Shown piece after piece: positions 1-12,896 of a stretch of DNA of 12,896 nucleotides (its first letter is position 1; each line of letters opens with the position of its first letter). The notes under the pieces were generated by a model that saw only the letters and a list, made by a program, of their open reading frames with translations, was not told the DNA's origin and made no database searches. A program made the position numbers and the translations under genes. The DNA comes from a virus (lineage: Duplodnaviria > Heunggongvirae > Uroviricota > Caudoviricetes), in the IMG/VR virus record IMGVR_UViG_2541047596_000008, positions 1 through 12,896 of that record; one strand, 5' to 3'.

Positions 1-267
1 TTACTCTGCAGGTGAAGTCGGCCACTCAATATCAGGTGCAGTTGATGTATCAACACGATTCAACAATACCCGATATTTATTCCATGCCTCCAGCAACGAT
101 CTTTCTTCCGCCGTTGCGATTTCCAGATCTACAGCATCCTGCAGTGGCGCAATATACTCACTGAATTCCTGGATGTGGAACTGTGTGGTGACGGTCTTCC
201 AGTCATTCGGCTCCTGCTGTATCGAAGCATACCAGGCTATTTCAATATCGCTATGCTGCGGCAGCAT
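1..267 (-). CDS. Tail fibre assembly protein remnant (C-terminal chaperone domain only, 88 aa)
   Basis: The C-terminal 55 residues ([45 protein letters not shown]) are near-identical to the C-terminus of the full tfa at 1047..1631; the N-terminal part is unrelated. ATG at 265-267 and TAA at 1-3. Confidence 0.7.
20..165. repeat. Direct repeat copy A (tfa C-terminal coding sequence), about 85% identical to 1069..1214
   Basis: By eye the nucleotide strings ggccactcaatatcaggtgcagttgatgtatcaacac ... ttccagatct(a/g)cagcatcctg recur at both positions in the same orientation. Confidence 0.7.
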
Positions 268-294
268 TTAACCCCTTGTAATTCATCGCCATAA

Positions 295-323
295 TTGATT
301 TAATTCACAAATAAAACTATAAC
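295..323 (+). promoter_or_regulatory. Candidate sigma70 promoter for the methyltransferase gene (TTGATT, 17-nt spacer, TATAAC)
   Basis: Hexamers at about 295-300 and 318-323 in an AT-rich stretch directly upstream of the ORF. A GGTGA Shine-Dalgarno at 326-330 favours the ATG at 336 over the ATG at 324 as the true start. Confidence 0.3.
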
Positions 324-992
324 ATGGTGAAATCAATGAAAAAAAACACAGATGATGGGGCTAAAATTTACACACCACTTACCCTAAAGCTTTATGACTG
401 GTGGGTTTTGGGAGTATCAAATCGGCTTGCATGGGGATGTCCTACAAAGGAACACCTTCTTCCACACTTTCTGGAACATGTAGGTAACAACCATCTGGAT
501 ATTGGTGTTGGAACTGGGTTTTACCTTACTCACGTACCTGAGAGTAGTCTGATATCTTTAATGGATTTGAACGAAGCTAGCCTGAACGCGGCATCTACAA
601 GGGCTGGGGAATCAAAAATTAAACATAAAATTAGCCATGATGTTTTTGAACCTTATCCCGCGGCGTTACATGGTCAATTTGATTCCATTTCCATGTTTTA
701 CCTTCTTCACTGCCTGCCTGGAAATATATCTACAAAAAGCTGTGTAATACGCAATGCGGCGCAGGCCTTAACTGACGATGGAACTCTATACGGAGCCACA
801 ATTCTTGGCGATGGAGTTGTGCACAATAGCTTCGGTCAAAAACTGATGCGCATTTACAATCAGAAAGGCATCTTTTCAAACACAAAAGATTCCGAAGAAG
901 GCTTAACACATATACTCTCAGAGCATTTCGAGAATGTTAAAACCAAGGTTCAAGGTACTGTAGTAATGTTTTCCGCTTCAGGGAAAAAATAG
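324..992 (+). CDS. Class I SAM-dependent methyltransferase (prophage moron); true start probably the ATG at 336
   Basis: Motif I LDIGVGTGF (glycine-rich SAM-binding loop) followed by an acidic residue at the end of the next strand (LMDLNEA). AT-rich relative to the flanking tail genes, opposite strand to them, and sandwiched between tfa and a tfa remnant. This arrangement resembles the tfaD-ybcY-tfaX arrangement I recall from E. coli K-12 prophage DLP12 (from memory, unverified). Confidence 0.75.
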   Translation: MVKSMKKNTDDGAKIYTPLTLKLYDWWVLGVSNRLAWGCPTKEHLLPHFLEHVGNNHLDIGVGTGFYLTHVPESSLISLMDLNEASLNAASTRAGESKIKHKISHDVFEPYPAALHGQFDSISMFYLLHCLPGNISTKSCVIRNAAQALTDDGTLYGATILGDGVVHNSFGQKLMRIYNQKGIFSNTKDSEEGLTHILSEHFENVKTKVQGTVVMFSASGKK

Positions 993-999
993 CATCCAA

Positions 1000-1032
1000 C
1001 CGCAGCACGTTCTTGCTTAAGACGTGCTGCGG
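1000..1032. terminator. Stem-loop between the convergent methyltransferase and tfa genes (11-bp perfect stem, 11-nt loop)
   Basis: ccgcagcacgt (1000-1010) pairs with acgtgctgcgg (1022-1032). On the minus strand the stem is followed a few nt later by a T-run (TATTTTTT), consistent with termination of the tfa transcript. Confidence 0.5.
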
Positions 1033-1046
1033 CATAATCCCAATGA

Positions 1047-1631
1047 TTACTCCCTGACAGGGTTCGTAGGCCACTCAATATCAGGTGCAGTTGATGTATC
1101 AACACGGTTCAGCAACACCCGATACTTTTTCCAGGCTTCCAGCAATGAGGTTTCTTTCTCCGTTGCAATTTCCAGATCTGCAGCATCCTGAAGCGGCGCA
1201 ATATGCTCACTGGCTACCTGCATCAGGTTGTTTTTTGTTTCTTCCGCCTCCCGGATCCGGAACAGTTTTTCTGCTTCCGTATCCTTCACCCAGGCTGTGC
1301 CGTTCCACTTCTGAAACTCCCCTTCCGGCGATAACCAGGTAACATTTTCCGGTAACGGACCGAGTTCAGAAATAAATAACTCGTCCCCTGACGCTACGTC
1401 ATAAACCGTTTTCCCCCGATGGTCTTCAACGAGATGCCACGATGCCTCATCACTGTTGAAAACAGCCACAAAGCCAGCAGGAATATCTGGTGGTGCAATA
1501 TCGGTACTGTTTGCTGGCAGACCTGTATGAGGCGGAATATATGCGTCACCTTCACCAATAAATTCATTAGTTCCGGCCAGCAGATTATAAATTTTTATGG
1601 TCCGTGCTTGTTCACTCATTCTGAATGCCAT
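1047..1631 (-). CDS. tfa: Tail fibre assembly protein Tfa (194 aa)
   Basis: The translation ([44 protein letters not shown]...) is near-identical over its whole length to my recollection of phage lambda Tfa. Its start ATG overlaps the stf stop (TAATG). Confidence 0.9.
1069..1214. repeat. Direct repeat copy B (tfa C-terminal coding sequence), partner of 20..165
   Basis: See copy A; same orientation, about 85% identity by eye. Confidence 0.7.
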
Positions 1632-4600
1632 TATGCAAGCCTCACAATATAGTTAAATGCGATGTTTTTGACGGTGTTTTCCGCGTTACCCGCAGCGTTA
1701 ACGGTGATGGTGTGTCCATGTGAACCAATCGCAACGGAGTGCGTATGCGCACCAATACCTACAGTATGTGCATGTGCGCCAGAACTTGCTGCAGTACCAG
1801 ACAGCGAGTGGGTATGAGCACCTGCTGACTGTGTCTGAATACGTTGATAATACGATCTATAGGAAGAAGTCTCCGGGCTTACTTGATACTGTGAATTCTG
1901 GACATAAGTGAACCCACCGCCATCATAAAATGCTAACGCAGAACCGCCGCCTCCTGGCCAACGAATACCATTACCATGAGTATGAACACCGGCAGACCCC
2001 GTAGAGCCACTCAGACTGTGCGTATGCGCCCCGGTGTTATTCGTGGATTTAGTGCCGTAATCAAACGACGATGTGGTTTTCGTCCCCAAATCCGTACTGG
2101 ATGCGCTGGCGCTGTGGGTGTGCGATTTTATGCCGTCCTGTTCCTGAGACAATACGGCCCGGCCACTGGCGGGTTTGCCCTTGATTGTCCAGCCGCGCAT
2201 ATCTGGAATAACACCTGAAGGATAGGCAATAGCCAGTTTCGGATATGCTGCCTTATCAAACGTCTGCCCCTGCATGATCGCATAACCTGCAGGTGGTGTA
2301 TCTGATGGCCACGGCAGCGGAACACCTGGCGGAAACGCTTCAATATTTGCCGAGCCGTCAAATTTTACGCCGTTAATTGTCCTTGCAGTTTGCAATTTGG
2401 TTGCTGTGCTTGCATTACCCGATAAAGATCCAGTGATACCACCACTCGCGTTTAATTTAGTTGCAATTGTAACATTGCCAGTATGGTTACTAATTATAAA
2501 CGGCCTTAAGCTATTGTGCGTACCAAGACTGTTACCCGAATCTGTCAACATAAAATATGTGTTTGATCCATCATTTCGGATAAAGAATCCATAGTTGCCA
2601 TAGGCAATACGCAGACCATTTGCTGACCTTGAAATAACCTCACCAGCAGCAGTTAAACCACCTGAAAGAGTCCCTCCAGTTAATGCCAATGCCCCAATAT
2701 TTGAAGGGGTCAATGTGATATTTGCACTACCATCAAATGACACACCGTTAATCGTTCTGGCTGCCTGAAGTTTCGTGGCGGTCGCAGCATTACCTGTAGT
2801 GTTTTGATTACCGGTAGCGTTGACTCCAGGCAAGTTGATATCTGCCGATCCATCAAATGCCACGCCCCCAATCTTACGTGCTGTCTTGATCTTGGTCGCA
2901 GTATCTGCGTTTCCGGTCAAATTACCAGTAACACTACCACCAACTTTTAGTCCATTACCGATGGACACCAACCCTGATCTTAAGTTTATAGAGAATGGTC
3001 TTAATGAACCGATGTCTCCATTTTCCCCCTCCCCTTCATTAGTCGGAATAAGATGAAGATGATCTTCGGAACGCCTAAAAATAAGGCCAAAGGCTTGGTT
3101 GAATATTCGAAGAGCATTTATCGTGCTGATTTTTAACTGCCCTCCCATTGTGTCGCCAGTTTTTTGAACTGAACTATCTTTAACAGTTTTAACTGCCTTT
3201 GGCGTTGCCGCCAGCTTTTCACTGGTGCTGTTTGTTGCACTGCTGAGCTGTACTATCCCCTTTTTCGTCGTGCTCGCATCCTCCAGCGCCACGGCGGATG
3301 CAATATCCTCTGCCCGTTTTGCTGCTGTCTCGGCGCGCGTTGCCGCGGATTCAGCAGCAACTTTGCTCTGAGATGCAGCCATCGCACTGCCTGCCGCCTC
3401 TGATGCTTTCGTTGTTGCTGTCGTGGCACTACCTTTCGCTGCTGACGCTTGTCTGGTCGCCTCATCTTTTGAAGCAGACGCAGATGATGCCGATGACGCC
3501 GCTGAACTGGCTGACGATGCGGCTGCCGCCTTAGAGGAAGCAGCATTGTCTGCTGAAGTCTTTGCATTTGTTTCAGAGGTTTTTGCTGCAGAAGCAGACC
3601 TCGCTGCTGCAGTGGCTTGCTCAGTGGCTTTGCCAGCTTTCGTTGTGGCTGTTGAAGCGGATGATGCGGCGCTTTCTGCCGATTTTCCGGCGGCGGTGGC
3701 ACTGGCTGAGGCCTGCCCGGCACTTGTTGACGCGGCACTGGCAGATAATGCAGCCGCTGTTTTTGAACCTGCCGCAGCTGAGGCGCTCTGTCCCGCTGCT
3801 GTTTCAGAAGACTTAGCGTTCGTCTCGGACGTTTTTGCCGCCTTCGCGGAATTTCCTGCCGCCGTTGCCGAGGAAGCTGCACTACTGGCACTTGATGATG
3901 CATTCGTTTCTGAAGATTTCGCTGCCTCTTTTGAGGCCGCCGCACCCCGTGCCGAGGTGGCAGCTTCTGACGCCTTCGTGGTCGCTGTGGATGCAGAAGT
4001 GGCTGCCGATTTTTGTGATGCTGCGGCATTCGTTTCTGACGTTTTCGCGGCACTGGCGCTGGTAGCTGCCGCGCTTTTTGATGACTCTGCAGCAGCAGCA
4101 CTTTTTGCTGCTTCACGGGCCTTTGTCGATGCCGTTCCTGCGCTGGAAGACGCTGACTGAGCCGACGACGCGGCCTGTCCGGCTGACGTGCTGGCGGCAC
4201 GTGCTGAGGCTGCAGCATCGGTTGCATGAGTTGCCGCCTCGCTGGCTGATGCACTGGCATCGCTGGCTGATTTTTTCGCGGCTGCCGTATTCTGTGCAAC
4301 CGCGGAGGCGTTACGTGACACCTCTTCCACCATCTGCTCAAAGCGGCGCAGTGCCTCCGGTCGGACATCATCCTCCGTCATGGCACCGAGAAAATCATTC
4401 AGCGTACCTGGTCTGGAACCTTCATAGACGGTAATGGTCCCGGCATGTGAAGGCGGAAAACCTTCAACCAGCAGGGTGACGCTGTACTGGCCATGCTCAA
4501 CATCCATGCTGTAACGTCCGGCTTCATCCGGATTTTCAGAGGCCACCGTGTTCACCACCACCGTGCTGCTGGTTCGTCTGGCCTTCAGCACAATGGTGCA

Positions 4601-4657
4601 GTTCTGTACTGGTTTTCCTGTGCCATCTTTAAGCACGCCAGAAATTTTTACTGTCAT
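1631..4657 (-). CDS. stf: Side tail fibre protein Stf (1008 aa), mosaic
   Basis: The N-terminus ([20 protein letters not shown]...) and the C-terminal HxH-rich tip (GAHTHSLSG..., [49 protein letters not shown]) match my recollection of lambda Stf. There is a long Ala/Ser/Thr-rich low-complexity region with recurring KTSETNA units and three copies of a phage tail-fibre repeat (GN-A-TATK-TAR-I-GV-FDGSA-I). Confidence 0.9.
3220..4300 (-). repeat. Low-complexity Ala/Ser/Thr-rich repetitive coding region inside stf
   Basis: Protein residues about 120-480 are dominated by A/S/T with recurring [15 protein letters not shown] and [10 protein letters not shown] units. This region produces long spurious ORFs in other frames on both strands. 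Confidence 0.7.
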
Positions 4658-4670
4658 ACTTTTCCACCAA

Positions 4671-4704
4671 TAAAAAAAGCCCGCAGCAGTGACGCCACGG
4701 GCTT
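4671..4704 (-). terminator. Probable rho-independent terminator downstream of lom (minus strand)
   Basis: On the minus strand a GC stem (AAGCCCG...CGGGCTT) is followed by TTTTTTTATT, lying between the lom stop and the stf start. The stem is imperfect and the loop long, so confidence is modest. Confidence 0.4.
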
Positions 4705-4808
4705 CAGGACAGTGTAACTTTACGTTTCCTCAAACGCAGTTCACCCCATAAGGTGGATGAACCTGCGTATCATAACAATATTTACAGAAGATAAATCGGC
4801 GTCTGTTG

Positions 4809-5408
4809 TCAGAAACGGTATCCGATACCAACAATAAATGCATCCGTTCGCCAGTCGCCACTACCGGAACCTTCATAAGCAAGGTCAATGGTTACGGATT
4901 CGGTCGGGTTAAACTGCACGCCAGCCCCCCACGCCAGAGACGTGTTGCTGTGGCGACCGTCATCACTTCCGGTCAGCACATCGTGCGTTTTCCCCTTGTT
5001 GTCAGTTACGCGGAGATAATCCCCGGAGAAAGTCGACACACGGCTGTAAGCCACACCCACCATCGCATACGCGCTGAACCATTCATTCACGCGTACAGAC
5101 GGCCCCGCCATCACGCTGAACCAGCGGTTACGCACGGAATCTTCATGCCAGCGGGTATCGCTGTAGCGCGTTTTTTGCTCATCCTCAGCATTGGCATAAC
5201 TGAAGGACGTAATCAGCCCCAGCGCGTCCGTAAACTCATAACGGTATTTCACGTTAATCCCGTTCAGATTATCGCTGCCGGGAGCGTTCGTACGGGCATG
5301 AAGATACCCCGCGCTCAGTGTGGACTGATGTTCAGACGCCCATGCAGGCGCACCGGATACGGACAGACAGATGGCTGCGGACAAAATGGCTGCACAAACT
5401 TTACGCAT
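4809..5408 (-). CDS. lom: Lom outer-membrane protein (Ail/Lom family beta-barrel)
   Basis: Signal peptide MRKVCAAILSAAICLSVSGAPAWA, C-terminal aromatic residue (GYRF), and near-identity to lambda Lom as I recall it. GAGG Shine-Dalgarno about 7 nt upstream. Confidence 0.92.
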   Translation of the reverse strand: MRKVCAAILSAAICLSVSGAPAWASEHQSTLSAGYLHARTNAPGSDNLNGINVKYRYEFTDALGLITSFSYANAEDEQKTRYSDTRWHEDSVRNRWFSVMAGPSVRVNEWFSAYAMVGVAYSRVSTFSGDYLRVTDNKGKTHDVLTGSDDGRHSNTSLAWGAGVQFNPTESVTIDLAYEGSGSGDWRTDAFIVGIGYRF

Positions 5409-5431
5409 AATTACCTCTCGCTTTTCTGCAA

Positions 5432-5456
5432 TAAAAAAGGCGCCATTTCTGGCGCC
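5432..5456 (-). terminator. Rho-independent terminator between the J-like remnant and lom (minus strand)
   Basis: Minus-strand hairpin GGCGCC-AGAAAT-GGCGCC immediately followed by TTTTTTATT. Confidence 0.55.
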
Positions 5457-5475
5457 CGTATTGGGGTTATAAAAT

Positions 5476-6126
5476 TCAGCTAATCGTGATGCCTGCAGTG
5501 GCTTTCTTCATCACAACAACCAGCAAATCGCTGATACTTGCTGTGGGATACCAGCCATTTACCCACCATGCTGATACAGAAAACTCCAGCGTCATGTGGC
5601 CGCGACCAGCAGGCATATCAATAACACCACTGTAAATCAGCGTATTATCCAGCGCGGTACGGTTATAAATTTCAGCACCGTTTTTCCGTACTATCAGGCG
5701 GCATGACGAATAAGTATCGCTGTTCTCCCGCTCATGTCTGGCACCGCTGAAAGCCACCGCCGGAATAACAATCTGCCGGTTAAACGGCTGATCGTCATAA
5801 ACCCTGACGGTAATGGTTCCTGATGGCCAACGCTCCGGTGCACGGGAGTCACGGGGGAAAGCCTTACCCACTGTTTTAACGAGATCGCCTTCAATCTGGT
5901 TTGCAGACAGTTTCCCTCTGATGACACAGTTCTCGTTAATGGTGACATTATTGAGCGTGCCGGTATTCGCCGTGATGGCTCCACTGATATAAGGGGTTAT
6001 GGCCACCGGACTACCAAACGGCTGCCAGCCCTCTTTCAGTTTATGTGTCAGCTTTTCCGCAAGATCTGACGGCGACGCCGCTCTGACAACATCATAGTGT
6101 TTAAATGCCATGGTTCTTTCCACCAT
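5476..6126 (-). CDS. Probable C-terminal remnant of the central tail fibre/host-specificity protein J (about 210 aa retained)
   Basis: Position only: it sits immediately upstream of lom with a 67-bp gap, as J does in lambda. Base composition switches abruptly to AT-rich at about 6127, and the reading frame is open upstream to a stop near 6196 without a convincing start signal. I cannot recall the J C-terminal sequence well enough to confirm homology. Confidence 0.5.
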
Positions 6127-6371
6127 CTGAAAAATGATTCTTTAAAATACCTGACATGTAATACAGAAAAAACACAAAACCATACCTTAATTAAAAACCT
6201 CATCATCAAGCAGATATGCATGGATAAACTACAAGACGAGATATAAACCACCCTGCATTTAAATAAACAATAAACAACATCAGAAAAATAATTCTGCTCT
6301 ATGGTTTACAATCAAAAATATCATTTATACTTTTCAGAACATCACCAGCAAGGCATAAACAAGGAAACTAA

Positions 6372-6707
6372 ATGAAGTGGATTGTGATTGATACAGTTAT
6401 CCAGCCATCATGCGGAATATCTTTTTCAGTCATATGGAGTAAAATAAAATTAATAATCTGGTATCAATCGGATGCTTTCTTACCTCCTGAAAGTATATTT
6501 ACACTGACTCACACAGGCATCATGCTCAATAACAAAGTGCTGCCTGTAACCATTTACAACGTAGTACCATTCAATAAAACATTCTGGAATTTAATCAAAA
6601 ACAGCCAGGAATGCCCTACAAATACAGATAACGTATTGAATGAATGCTTTAATAACCGTTGCACTCTGCAAATATGTCCTTATGGGCTAAAACAACAAAG
6701 TCCATAA
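6372..6707 (+). CDS. Hypothetical protein, AT-rich cargo gene (111 aa, Cys-rich C-terminus)
   Basis: Good Shine-Dalgarno (AAGGAA, about 5 nt before the ATG) and a candidate promoter upstream (TTTACA, 17-nt spacer, TACTTT, about 6303-6331). About half of its Ile codons are the rare ATA. The C-terminus has four Cys spaced as C-x11-C-x4-C-x4-C ([23 protein letters not shown]). No family recognised. Confidence 0.4.
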
Positions 6708-6741
6708 GGAGTTTACTCACATCTGACAAAATCAATATAAA

Positions 6742-6763
6742 CAGCCCCTCCGGAGAGGGGCTG
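6742..6763. terminator. Strong GC hairpin (9-bp perfect stem, 4-nt loop), likely bidirectional terminator for the convergent cargo units
   Basis: CAGCCCCTC-CGGA-GAGGGGCTG; on the minus strand it is followed by TTTATATTGATTTTG. It lies 35 nt after the stop of the 6372..6707 ORF. Confidence 0.45.
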
Positions 6764-7154
6764 GAGAGTGGCGCTATGTGCCATTGCATGGTGCCGGGTG
6801 CCTCCCGGTGAATTCAGTACCAGCACCTGAATCCGCGATTATCCCATATACCTACTCGCTGATTGCCCCTCCGCACAGGGGGATTCACCATGCCAGTTTC
6901 TTTTAACAAACTCCCCGCAAACCAGACAACAGTCAACCGCCTGAATTGTGAAGTATTTAAAAATTTCTCCCGCTAACTGATACCCGGCTAACAGTCTGGC
7001 GTTTTCTTTTTCAGCAACGGGAAAGCAGCAACCACCACACCCGCCACCAGCACACCGTCAGCCAGCACTGACATTATCCGGCTGCTGCAATGCCATTCAC
7101 AAAAACAGTAAGCAATCACTTTTTACCGTAACCGGTGATAATCCAGATATGTAT

Positions 7155-7511
7155 CTACCCCAGATGAGTAATCCGAAGTTCATCCATACCACAGGTCCTG
7201 GCTATTCTGTTGTACTCCTGAACAAGAGCAAATAATTCTGAATTAGCCACCATGAACTCATCGCAAACCCTCTGTATAGCATCACTATTCAGAATAATAA
7301 CGTCTCTTCCCGAAAGACGATCAGGAGTACAGAACAAAACTGTCAAACGGCTGAAGGCCTTTGCTCGTTCTGCATTGACTATATCAATACGCTGCCTAAG
7401 GATGAAACACCCCGACGCCTCATCAATATTCACTCTACCCACACCATATGAATGATAAATATTTAATGCTGAAAAAACCATTAGACCGTATAACAAACAC
7501 TCAATCAACAC
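7155..7511 (-). CDS. Hypothetical protein, cargo ORF immediately downstream of the tRNA cluster (118 aa as tracked)
   Basis: The tracked start is a GTG with no Shine-Dalgarno; the first ATG is at codon 11. It is rich in rare AGA/AGG/ATA codons. No family recognised; it could be a remnant. Confidence 0.35.
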   Translation of the reverse strand: MLIECLLYGLMVFSALNIYHSYGVGRVNIDEASGCFILRQRIDIVNAERAKAFSRLTVLFCTPDRLSGRDVIILNSDAIQRVCDEFMVANSELFALVQEYNRIARTCGMDELRITHLG

Positions 7512-7618: not shown

Positions 7619-7695
7619 TGGCGCGCTGTACTGGATTCGAACCAGTGACCGATTGCTTAGAAGGCAATTGCTCTGTCCGGCTGAGCTAACAACGC
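7619..7695 (-). tRNA. tRNA-Arg (anticodon UCU)
   Basis: The minus-strand sequence GCGTTGTTAGCTCAGCCGGACAGAGCAATTGCCTTCTAAGCAATCGGTCACTGGTTCGAATCCAGTACAGCGCGCCA folds as a cloverleaf with anticodon loop CTTCTAA, a GGTTCGAATCC T-arm and an encoded CCA. Confidence 0.85.
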
Positions 7696-7708
7696 ATGAT
7701 GCAGATAA

Positions 7709-7785
7709 TGGACCGCCATCGGGGACTTGAACCCCGCGCAGCCAGCTTCGAAGGCTGGCGCTCTTTCCTGATGAGCTAATGGCGG
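7709..7785 (-). tRNA. tRNA-Arg (anticodon UCG)
   Basis: The minus-strand sequence ...TAGCTCATCAGGAAAGAGCGCCAGCCTTCGAAGCTGGCTGCGCGGGGTTCAAGTCCCCGATGGCGGTCCA has anticodon stem CCAGC/GCTGG, loop CTTCGAA and a GGTTCAAGTCC T-arm. Confidence 0.8.
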
Positions 7786-7792
7786 TATGTGA

Positions 7793-7868
7793 TGGTGGCC
7801 CTTGCTGGATTTGAACCAGCGACCTGGCGATTATGAGTCGCTCGCTCTCACCACTGAGCTAAAGGGCC
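7793..7868 (-). tRNA. tRNA with CAU anticodon, most likely tRNA-Ile2 (lysidine-modified, reads AUA), alternatively tRNA-Met
   Basis: The minus-strand sequence GGCCCTTTAGCTCAGTGGTGAGAGCGAGCGACTCATAATCGCCAGGTCGCTGGTTCAAATCCAGCAAGGGCCACCA closely resembles E. coli ileX-type tRNA as I recall it; anticodon loop CTCATAA. Confidence 0.85.
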
Positions 7869-8011: not shown

Positions 8012-8833
8012 TTACCTAGTTACCTTTTTTAACTGCCGCTCAGCCCATGCTTCTTCAATATCAAACCGGGTCACCAGCGCATCATAGAATTTCTTAACTG
8101 TTTTTTCCCATGACGCGCGTGTTATCTGGTTTGTCACCTCGCATATAGCATTAAATGCCTCCGTTGATGGTAGTCTTTCATAGCCACGACCACCACAACG
8201 CTGGCAGTCTCTGATAACAGGCATACCACGTTTTACCGACTCTTCACGATGAATGGCGACACCACGCCCACGGCAATCCTTACAGGCGGTGGAAACCTCA
8301 CCCTTTCCGCCACACTCCGGACAGGCAACTTTTACCACCTCCCTGACTTTTTTCCATTCTTCCCAGTAAGACGAATACACACCTTTCGTACACTTTGCCC
8401 ATACCGGCGGCTTACCATCCGGATACTGGACCTTGTTTGTAAAAACTACGCTTTCAATAAATTTTTCCCCATAGCAACAAGGGCACTGCTTTTTACTCGC
8501 TGCGCTGCGGGCATAATCCTCAAAAGCGTACGAAGCCATAATGCGCATCACTACCGGTTTTATTTCTGCCGGAAGTTTTCTCAACGCCGCCACACGATCG
8601 CACCGACTGAGTGCATAATCTGCCAGTAATTCTGTTGCCCGCGCCCTGTCATTCATACTGATGCCCATTTTCCCCAGGAACGCAGAAAAACCCATCTCAG
8701 CCCGATTCTGTGTCATGCCCTGCGCGGCCATCACATCAGTGATACTCAGCGCATCTTTTGACGTTGAGGCCGATGCATCGGTCAGGCCAGGGGATTTTGG
8801 GGAGTAGTATTTCGGTAAATCTTCCAGTTTCAT
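8012..8833 (-). CDS. Putative late-gene antitermination protein (Q-like) with four CxxCxGxG zinc-finger repeats
   Basis: Position: after rusA and before a promoter, terminator and the tRNAs. The C-terminal half carries CPCCYGEKF, CPECGGKGE, CKDCRGRGV and CQRCGGRGY. Size and position fit the larger Q-like proteins of E. coli prophages. The family assignment rests on synteny and zinc-finger content, not on a recognised alignment. Confidence 0.6.
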   Translation of the reverse strand: MKLEDLPKYYSPKSPGLTDASASTSKDALSITDVMAAQGMTQNRAEMGFSAFLGKMGISMNDRARATELLADYALSRCDRVAALRKLPAEIKPVVMRIMASYAFEDYARSAASKKQCPCCYGEKFIESVVFTNKVQYPDGKPPVWAKCTKGVYSSYWEEWKKVREVVKVACPECGGKGEVSTACKDCRGRGVAIHREESVKRGMPVIRDCQRCGGRGYERLPSTEAFNAICEVTNQITRASWEKTVKKFYDALVTRFDIEEAWAERQLKKVTR

Positions 8834-11539: not shown

Positions 11540-11809
11540 ATGAGCGAACAGTACCTGATAACGCTCGACGAGTGGAAACCAAAACGGTTCAGTCTCCCAA
11601 TAACAAACACTACCCTGGTGAAATACGGAAAACTAGGATACATCGTTCCAAGGCCACAAAAAATTCGTGGGCGTTGGCTGATAGATCGCCGAGCAGTATT
11701 TGTTGGGCCTGGTGAAACGGGAATTGCGCCGGAAATTCATACTGGCGATGATGATGCACTGAAGGAGATTTTAACTCATGTCACCGAGGCCACGAAAAAA
11801 CAGCACTGA
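11540..11809 (+). CDS. xis: Excisionase-like protein (Xis)
   Basis: Small basic protein immediately upstream of, and overlapping, the integrase gene. GGAG Shine-Dalgarno 8 nt before the ATG at 11540; the tracked ORF begins at an upstream GTG at 11531. Assignment is mainly positional. Confidence 0.55.
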   Translation: MSEQYLITLDEWKPKRFSLPITNTTLVKYGKLGYIVPRPQKIRGRWLIDRRAVFVGPGETGIAPEIHTGDDDALKEILTHVTEATKKQH

Positions 11810-12896
11810 CGTAGCCGGTCTTTACGAAAAGTTTGATCGCAGAACTGGCAGAGTTTACTACCAGTATAAAAATCCTGTGACTGGAAAATTTCACGGACTC
11901 GGAACAGACAAAGGTAAGGCAGAAAAAATCGCTTCCACAGCCAATCAGCGAATAGCTGCAGCAGAAGCTGAATATTTCATGCGCAAAATTGATGAAAGTC
12001 CGTCAGCAACAAAACGTCGGGGTATCAGATTAAAGGCATGGGTTGATCGATATCTGAAAATACAGGACACGCGACTGAAAAATGGAGATATTGCAGCTAC
12101 AACTCACAAAGAAAAAACTCGAATGGCTGCATACCTGGTTTCCCGTCTGGGAAACCACCCATTGAAAGAACTGGAAGTAAGAGACTTTGCATTAATACTG
12201 GATGAGTGGCTGGATAAAGACATGGTCAGCACAGCGAGAGTAAATCGTGGATTATGGGTTGATATTTATAAAGAAGCACAGCATGCAGGGGAAGTTCCTC
12301 CTGGATGGAATCCTCCGGAGGCTACCCGTAAACCGATCCCTAAAGTAACCAGAGCCAGGCTCACCATGGAAGACTGGCAAAAAATTTACAATGCAACGCC
12401 TGAAAAACACTTTATCCGTAACGCAATGCTTCTTGCGATTGTTACTGGTCAGCGCCGTGATGACATTTGCCACATGCGTTTTTCAGATGTGTGGAACGAA
12501 CACTTGCATATCACCCAGGGAAAAACCGGAATGCGTCTGGCGTTACCGCTTACACTACGCTGTGATGCCATTGGGATAACGTTAAAAGAAGTTATTGATG
12601 GGTGCCGAGACAGAATATTAAGTCCATATCTAATCCATAGTCGGCACCAGAAACAACCGAAGCCGATGAGTAAAGACAACCTGAGCGACTACTTTGCCAA
12701 AGCACGGGATCTGGCTGGGATAATTCCACCAGCAGGAAAAACTCCGCCAACATTTCATGAACAACGCTCTCTATCAGAACGGCTGTACCGTGCACAGGGT
12801 ATCGATACAAAAACATTACTAGGACATAAAGTCCAGGCAACCACCGATCGCTATAACGATACTCGAGGTCAGGAATGGGTTAAGTTGGTTATTTGA
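11778..12896 (+). CDS. int: Lambda-family tyrosine integrase
   Basis: Catalytic-core motifs TGQRRDDICHMRF, HEQRSLSERLY and LLGHKVQATTDRYNDTRGQEW (catalytic Tyr) align with lambda Int as I recall it. AAGGAG Shine-Dalgarno upstream. The 5' end overlaps xis. The gene is transcribed towards the right edge, so the att site should lie just beyond the window. Confidence 0.9.
   Translation: MSPRPRKNSTDVAGLYEKFDRRTGRVYYQYKNPVTGKFHGLGTDKGKAEKIASTANQRIAAAEAEYFMRKIDESPSATKRRGIRLKAWVDRYLKIQDTRLKNGDIAATTHKEKTRMAAYLVSRLGNHPLKELEVRDFALILDEWLDKDMVSTARVNRGLWVDIYKEAQHAGEVPPGWNPPEATRKPIPKVTRARLTMEDWQKIYNATPEKHFIRNAMLLAIVTGQRRDDICHMRFSDVWNEHLHITQGKTGMRLALPLTLRCDAIGITLKEVIDGCRDRILSPYLIHSRHQKQPKPMSKDNLSDYFAKARDLAGIIPPAGKTPPTFHEQRSLSERLYRAQGIDTKTLLGHKVQATTDRYNDTRGQEWVKLVI

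Follow-up and report, generated by a model that had tools for sequence, protein, structure and literature searches.

How did a methyltransferase gene come to lie between two direct copies of the 3' end of a tail fibre assembly gene, and what does its product do? The question is raised by one end of IMG/VR virus record IMGVR_UViG_2541047596_000008, a stretch of 12,896 nucleotides of caudoviricete DNA (hereafter the window), which is an entire, heavily deleted lambdoid prophage situated between potB and potC. Three elements are concerned, here called the trio (coordinates in Table 1): an open reading frame (ORF) of 88 codons ending in a fragment of a second tfa allele, an intact gene for a class I S-adenosylmethionine (SAM)-dependent methyltransferase of the YbcY family on the opposite strand, and an intact tfa. 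Our best explanation, in which we have good confidence taken as a whole, is that this locus forms the end of the right arm of a lambdoid prophage with a YbcY-family cargo gene, or moron, and that the repeat is the trace of a crossover between two phages. Sequence comparisons show that the locus is already known and very common, being the intact form of the tfaD–ybcY–tfaX locus of the DLP12 prophage of Escherichia coli K-12. Two refinements are made here, namely that the tfaX-type ORF is a chimera and that the methyltransferase occupies a standard cargo slot. What the initial annotation of this DNA observed is confirmed, and its interpretation is supported in part.

A methyltransferase cassette recurring in different mobile contexts

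The cassette comprising the methyltransferase gene, its upstream region and the start of the divergent ORF (181-1004) is a unit which recurs in different mobile contexts. A set of Citrobacter contigs (L007-L010) is 91.6% identical to it, with homology starting at 181 and no tfa on either side; in these the ORF divergent from the methyltransferase gene encodes an intact protein of 79 amino acids, with a UmuD-like gene beyond. Window 267-998 is likewise 87.6% identical to Salmonella plasmid-like contigs. Among 5426 complete E. coli genomes the cassette is present in 3798 (about 70%) at 95% identity or more, and 1499 contain at least 80% of window 1-1700. The trio, which is 97-100% identical across strains, is also carried by the plaque-forming temperate phages PhiR26_1, PhiR29_1/2, PhiR30_1, 2G7b and ev243, where it is followed by genes for an alpha/beta hydrolase, OmpT and the integrase (int). 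The cluster of methyltransferases 100% identical to that of the window has 6589 member sequences.

In the window the gene lies on the strand opposite to the late genes, in the slot directly downstream of tfa. It had been described as complete, encoded on the opposite strand and AT-rich, and all three points hold: the ORF of 222 codons is uninterrupted and matches Pfam methyltransferase families, and at 41.1% GC it is moderately AT-rich relative to tfa (48%) and stf (52%), the differing base composition expected of a moron. The true start is probably M5 (nucleotide 336), since this residue is invariant in the homologue alignment and the phrog_2132 profile begins there. The ratio of non-synonymous to synonymous substitution rates (dN/dS) is 0.21 against the Citrobacter copy and 0.17 against the Salmonella copy, which indicates that the gene is under purifying selection. 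In strain E2348/69 (NC_011601.1 513026-521793) the prophage at the DLP12 site, by the argU tRNA gene, consists of a partial int, a partial tfa, an intact methyltransferase gene of the YbcY type (218 amino acids) and ompT; the cargo genes have here outlasted all phage functions.

More distant homologues, 56-68% identical, stand alone in the chromosomes of Salmonella, Enterobacter and Yersinia. An ORF of 79 amino acids upstream of the Yersinia homologue was considered as a relative of phrog_3893, the family of the 79-residue phage protein, and proved to be unrelated. In two unrelated settings, a Salmonella plasmid-like contig (L012 2328-3158) and a Yersinia island (L022/L023 6170-6361), the methyltransferase homologue has downstream of it a whole or fragmentary gene for an Rce1-like (CPBP-type) membrane protease, which may be a coincidence.

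Fold and probable substrate class of the enzyme

An AlphaFold2 model derived from 38 homologues, with a mean predicted local distance difference test (pLDDT) score of 90.6, displays a full seven-strand class I fold preceded by an N-terminal helical lid, and the glycines of motif I (GxGxG; G61, G63 and G65), D81 and D106 are invariant in these homologues. With seven strands, the GxGxG motif and acidic residues after strands 2 and 3, the protein is predicted to be a genuine class I SAM-dependent methyltransferase, and the complete SAM-binding fold presumed by the initial annotation is borne out by the model. Sequence matches in the PDB are to JHAMT and UbiG, at E values of about 1e-3, and those in NCBIfam (CpaM, RquA and PmtA) are all sub-threshold, at 16-18 bits against cut-offs of 175-390. 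The structural neighbours are overwhelmingly small-molecule and lipid methyltransferases, together with a few RNA-modifying enzymes such as CmoA and METTL6; there are no DNA methyltransferases among the top structural matches. The substrate is most probably a small molecule or lipid in the host cell.

That the enzyme instead modifies DNA or RNA, in the service of anti-restriction or epigenetic control, is highly improbable. It matches no DNA-methyltransferase family of Pfam, neither motifs of the DPPY type, (D/N/S)PP(Y/F), nor PCQ/ENV motifs were seen in the translated sequence, and the model is a single domain of 222 amino acids with no room for a target-recognition domain. Its best matches in both sequence and structure are to small-molecule or lipid enzymes, and its homologues stand alone in chromosomes across Enterobacterales. 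DNA is thus very unlikely to be the target. The target had earlier been judged not to be deducible from sequence, but its class can be narrowed.

The presence of the gene in about 70% of complete E. coli genomes, the purifying selection and its survival with ompT in otherwise erased prophages raise the possibility, which we put forward only tentatively, that YbcY is a selected lysogenic-conversion enzyme acting on a host lipid, a quinone or an exogenous small-molecule toxin, to the benefit of the fitness of the lysogen. If true, this would supply a function for a prophage gene that is among the commonest uncharacterised ones in E. coli. Thousands of E. coli genomes have an intact copy of the gene, and its substrate is the one question of some weight posed by the locus. 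K-12, in which most genetics has been done, has only a dead ybcY, and standard K-12 knockout screens therefore cannot address it. We found no functional study of ybcY or tfaX in the literature, and PADLOC returned no defence-system match for the methyltransferase.

Two tfa alleles and a fused reading frame

The direct repeat which flanks the methyltransferase gene is 158 nucleotides long and ungapped, with 136 of the 158 positions identical (86.1%) and a longest perfect block of 38 bp (20-57 = 1069-1106). The repeat of about 150 bp and about 85% identity reported earlier (20..165 and 1069..1214) was therefore no misreading. It was also said to encode the conserved Tfa chaperone domain, which stands for the conserved C-terminal helical domain and does not extend to the fibre-specific part of the protein: in a later paper (PMC9608196, summarising North et al. 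2019), the C-terminal domain of Tfa is proposed to mediate trimerisation and the variable N-terminal domain to bind the fibre. No resolvase-family Pfam match was obtained among the larger ORFs of the window and no meaningful inverted repeats occur within 1-6200, in agreement with the earlier statement that the locus has direct repeats and no invertase and is not an invertible segment.

The left-hand copy belongs to an ORF which differs from a simple tfa remnant. Caudo_TAP matches only residues 31-87 of its product, which correspond to positions 75-131 of the 131 in the profile, and phrog_3893 matches residues 3-37. Conversely, the intact Citrobacter protein matches phrog_2341, the family of the 88-residue product, over residues 2-36 (E 4.8e-15), and a tblastn comparison yields 75% identity across residues 1-36. 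The ORF is accordingly an in-frame fusion of the first 31 to 36 or so codons of the gene for the 79-residue protein with the last 57 codons of tfa, the junction falling at a shared TTCCTGGA (about 167-174) that is present in both parents. Its designation as a tfa remnant over 1..267 is thus correct for nucleotides 1-174, and codons 1-31 come from the phrog_3893-type gene. The same junction is seen in all the variants of the trio that were compared (the window, K-12, PhiR26_1 and 2G7b), which points to a single origin.

The intact gene for the 79-residue protein directly follows the tail fibre genes, and runs in the same direction, in HK225, Erwinia phage Midgardsormr38, vB_EcoS-733R5 and others. 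In HK225 dinI is inserted between tfa and this gene on the opposite strand, which is the position of the methyltransferase here. In strain AR_0150, PGAP places a frameshifted gene of the DinI family over the equivalent of window ~169-248, on the other strand from the phrog_3893-derived codons which it overlaps; this call looks like an annotation artefact.

Based on these observations we envisage an ancestor with the order stf, tfa, methyltransferase gene (opposite strand) and gene for the 79-residue protein. One illegitimate crossover at the shared TTCCTGGA would have joined the last of these to the part of another lambdoid phage's tfa that specifies the C-terminal third and, by swapping everything past the junction, would have left two direct copies of the conserved Tfa C-terminal segment. 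Subsequent homologous exchanges within this segment might then have moved the trio between fibre modules and between attachment and integrase (att/int) modules. The initial annotation saw here the footprint of a fibre-module exchange that trapped a moron. The exchange is upheld, in that the tfa C-terminal segment behaves as a recombination joint (see below), but it did not trap the moron, which occupies the normal cargo position between tfa and the gene for the 79-residue protein and whose cassette is found without tfa flanks as well.

The differences between the two copies of the repeat bear directly on this proposal. They comprise 11.5 synonymous and 10.5 non-synonymous changes, giving a dS of 0.42, a dN of 0.09 and a dN/dS of 0.22, a small sample of only 22 differences. 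Such a ratio is that of two genes which diverged while functional, and hence suggests two parental tfa alleles rather than a local duplication followed by neutral decay. A duplication, in which the cassette inserted into a single tfa and duplicated about 170 nucleotides of its 3' end, with the copies then diverging in place, would account for repeats that are direct and closely bracket the cassette. We nevertheless consider it very doubtful: the copies are 14% different, with the ratio just given, in a trio that is nearly uniform across strains, the left junction lies within another gene (phrog_3893) and not at the end of the cassette, and neither a transposase nor terminal repeats are present at the locus.

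There is as little to be said for a function of the chimeric ORF itself. It is in frame with its own ATG, it belongs to a recurrent PHROG family, and in K-12 genomic systematic evolution of ligands by exponential enrichment (SELEX) placed an RpoD site in the part of the spacer next to tfaX. A functional small protein, interfering for example with the fibre assembly of superinfecting phages or serving as an accessory chaperone, is nonetheless a quite improbable reading, for the product lacks the variable N-terminal fibre-binding domain of a functional Tfa, its N-terminus belonging to phrog_3893, and it has no match in PADLOC. Furthermore, the ORF carries a 7-nucleotide deletion in 2G7b and a Trp-to-stop change in K-12, has lost its last 42 nucleotides and had its 3' end replaced in PhiR26_1, and is deleted in E2348/69, which retains the methyltransferase. 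These lesions indicate independent inactivation in different lineages, and the chimera is most likely a non-functional fusion product, a decaying by-product of the recombination. The least credible alternative, that the repeated element is a small-RNA gene and not a coding remnant, starts from matches to Rfam IS009 (RF02111, a putative small RNA) at 1090-1288 (-) with 222 bits, above the gathering score of 117, and at 41-244 (-) with 108.8 bits, but both lie on the coding strand within Tfa-domain coding sequence, the substitutions between the copies are codon-patterned and several base pairs of the model are broken in the second copy. IS009 seems to describe conserved coding sequence of tfa and not an RNA that has been demonstrated.

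The tfa 3' end as a recombination joint

In 2G7b, ev243 and PhiR49_1 the window ceases to be matched at 1167, within the right-hand repeat, and the fibre genes upstream are unrelated, which indicates that the tfa C-terminal segment really is a recombination joint. On the other side the remnant has three different 3' ends across lineages: in the window it is complete to the tfa stop codon, beyond which comes the flank of the potB type; PhiR26_1 and 2G7b cease to be homologous at about nucleotide 43; and K-12 shows yet another form, in which a patch is similar to the intact copy.

"Empty" potB sites, in which the same phage flank is joined directly to a single tfa and the methyltransferase is absent, were found in 46 genomes; the methyltransferase thus lies between sequences that are adjacent in related phages, as is expected of a moron. 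The empty allele of O104:H4 is of the remnant type at nucleotides 1-19 and of the intact type from nucleotide 58, so that the switch falls within the identical block of 38 bp, exactly as expected from a crossover between the repeats. The same pattern would result if the empty phage were ancestral and had later gained the trio by homologous exchange. The remainder of the O104:H4 prophage is only 82-92% identical to the window, and it is therefore not a recent derivative. The predicted product of deletion (flank, nucleotides 1-57 and nucleotides 1107-2100) had no single-piece match near 100% among the 5426 genomes; the best 60 records were all undeleted two-piece matches of 98.5-98.6%. The prediction that the methyltransferase is deletable through the repeats holds only in principle; empty sites exist, but no recent deletion was found among the 5426 genomes: repeat-mediated deletion is mechanistically possible and was not observed for this prophage type.

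Expression and points weighed against the proposed origin

The spacer between the divergent genes contains sigma-70-like elements. In the near-identical spacer of K-12, genomic SELEX detected sites for the RpoD holoenzyme facing both ybcY and tfaX, as well as binding of H-NS (PMC3946193). A hairpin between the convergent methyltransferase and tfa genes has a predicted free energy of -23.9 kcal/mol (z -5.6) on the + strand and of -28.5 kcal/mol on the - strand. The methyltransferase would probably be expressed from its own promoter in the lysogen. As it points in the same direction as int, early leftward transcription continuing through att in the circular phage genome might, by analogy with the lambda map, provide a second route during lytic growth. 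RefSeq annotates a "hypothetical protein" of 45 amino acids (WP_001309429.1; 937-1074, -) which covers the tfa stop codon and the hairpin and runs into the methyltransferase gene at its 3' end, and which is probably an annotation artefact.

Several points weigh against the explanation that we prefer. Promoter-like sites in the spacer are no commoner than chance and the hairpin lacks a canonical U-tract, so that autonomous expression rests on the K-12 SELEX data for the homologous spacer. The chromosomal homologues in Salmonella, Enterobacter and Yersinia show no conserved neighbour or pathway. As to the origin of the trio, the dN/dS of the repeat comes from few differences, and no phage with the order stf–tfa–methyltransferase–intact gene for the 79-residue protein was recovered. 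The order of events is unprovable, and the trio of the window type could be a derived form and not the original one.

The prophage and its other genes

The prophage extends from the stop codon of the 88-codon ORF to that of the integrase gene (11778-12896). It retains genes for an exonuclease, a DUF968 protein, RusA, the Q antiterminator, Lom, Stf and Tfa, together with three tRNA genes and a match to STnc100. Window 1-5990 is 100% identical to the potB prophage of ATCC 25922 and many other strains, and its tfa is 92.9% identical in nucleotide sequence to that of lambda.

Table 1. Features of the trio and the adjoining tail fibre region (window coordinates)
Feature	Position	Strand	Remarks
Chimeric ORF, 88 amino acids, counterpart of K-12 TfaX	1..267	-	phrog_2341 match 1-88/88
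Last 57 codons and stop of second tfa allele (conserved Tfa C-terminal domain)	1..174	-	Caudo_TAP; PGAP "partial tfa"
First 31 codons, truncated phrog_3893-type gene (79 amino acids), in-frame fusion to tfa fragment	175..267	-	ATG at 265-267
Repeat copy A	17-174	-	Inside second-allele tfa fragment 1..174
Repeat copy B	1066-1223	-	Inside intact tfa
tfa-independent recurring block: methyltransferase, upstream region and start of gene for 79-residue protein	181..1004	+	Citrobacter, Salmonella and E. coli copies
Divergent spacer, sigma-70-like elements for methyltransferase	268..335		TTAACC-16-CATAAT at 268-295; TTGATT-17-TATAAC at 295-323
YbcY-family class I SAM-dependent methyltransferase (phrog_2132), intact	324..992	+	222 amino acids; Methyltransf_12/23/25/11
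Hairpin between convergent methyltransferase and tfa, possible bidirectional terminator	1000..1032		Outside Citrobacter homology block
tfa, intact tail fibre assembly gene, lambda Tfa type	1047..1631	-	194 amino acids; Caudo_TAP E 4e-44; phrog_105
stf, side tail fibre, client of Tfa	1631..4657	-	1008 amino acids; phage_tail_N, Gp34_trimer, Collar and Phage_fiber domains

Beyond stf, an ORF of 216 codons (5476-6126, -) is a fusion of a DUF1737 N-terminus to the C-terminal receptor-binding domain of the tail tip protein J. DUF1737 constitutes the N-terminus of esterases of the nanS-p type, whose genes follow Q in Stx-like phages. A large deletion is marked by this fusion, and with it the lysis, head and most of the tail genes have gone; the prophage is therefore defective. 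The Q antiterminator gene lies at 8012-8833, with the tRNA cluster downstream (7619-7868, -) comprising Arg-TCT, Arg-TCG and a tRNA with a CAT anticodon, which ARAGORN calls Met and PGAP, in a related strain, Ile. The STnc100 small-RNA match (132 bits) is at 6733-6922 (-), and the stretch 6100-6500 is AT-rich, with about 30% GC. Between the J fragment and the tRNA genes the AT-rich region contains two ORFs, at 6372-6707 (+) and 7155-7511 (-), whose products of 111 and 118 amino acids have no match in Pfam or PADLOC.

Comparison with known systems

The enzyme itself has no single best neighbour among the small-molecule and lipid class I methyltransferases. UbiE/UbiG/Coq5, PmtA, phosphoethanolamine N-methyltransferase, JHAMT, DhpI and BelI are only 12-21% identical to it. 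PHROGs already contains families for both the methyltransferase and the 88-residue product.

A superficial likeness exists to the invertible host-range segments of Mu (G/Gin), P1 (C/Cin) and e14 (P/Pin), in that two tfa-type copies lie by a tail fibre gene. Unlike in those segments, the copies here are direct, and there is no invertase, no inverted repeats as crossover sites and no alternative C-terminus of the fibre.

A much closer relationship is to the morons of lambdoid phages in the sense of Hendrix and Juhala, such as lom and bor in lambda and dinI after tfa in HK225, in which, as here, an extra gene stands between genes that are adjacent in relatives. The lower GC content, the promoter-like elements, the flanking hairpin and the location on the opposite strand at the end of the late operon are further points of likeness. 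The present case differs in that autonomous expression is only putative here and in that the insertion is accompanied by a gene fusion and by a direct repeat of 158 nucleotides.

The comparison with the DLP12-type tfaD/ybcY/tfaX loci that had been recommended at the outset was exactly the right one. The K-12 locus agrees with that of the window in its three elements, in their order and orientation and in the fusion junction, and is 96.7% identical in nucleotide sequence over window 21-1485 (1465 nucleotides). The methyltransferase gene is intact in the window, whereas ybcY of K-12 is a pseudogene in which a deletion of 2 nucleotides (window 338-339) removes the conserved start M5, the remaining reading frame being open. 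Similarly, the chimera reaches the native tfa stop codon here and is cut to 61 amino acids by a nonsense codon in K-12 TfaX, and the prophage lies at potB/potC here, with att following, but at argU in K-12, with appY and ompT following. The K-12 "gene" tfaX is thereby explained as a fusion of two gene fragments, which is not new biology, and the locus offers a clear example of the reshuffling, at the conserved tfa 3' end, of tail fibre and cargo modules among lambdoid phages.

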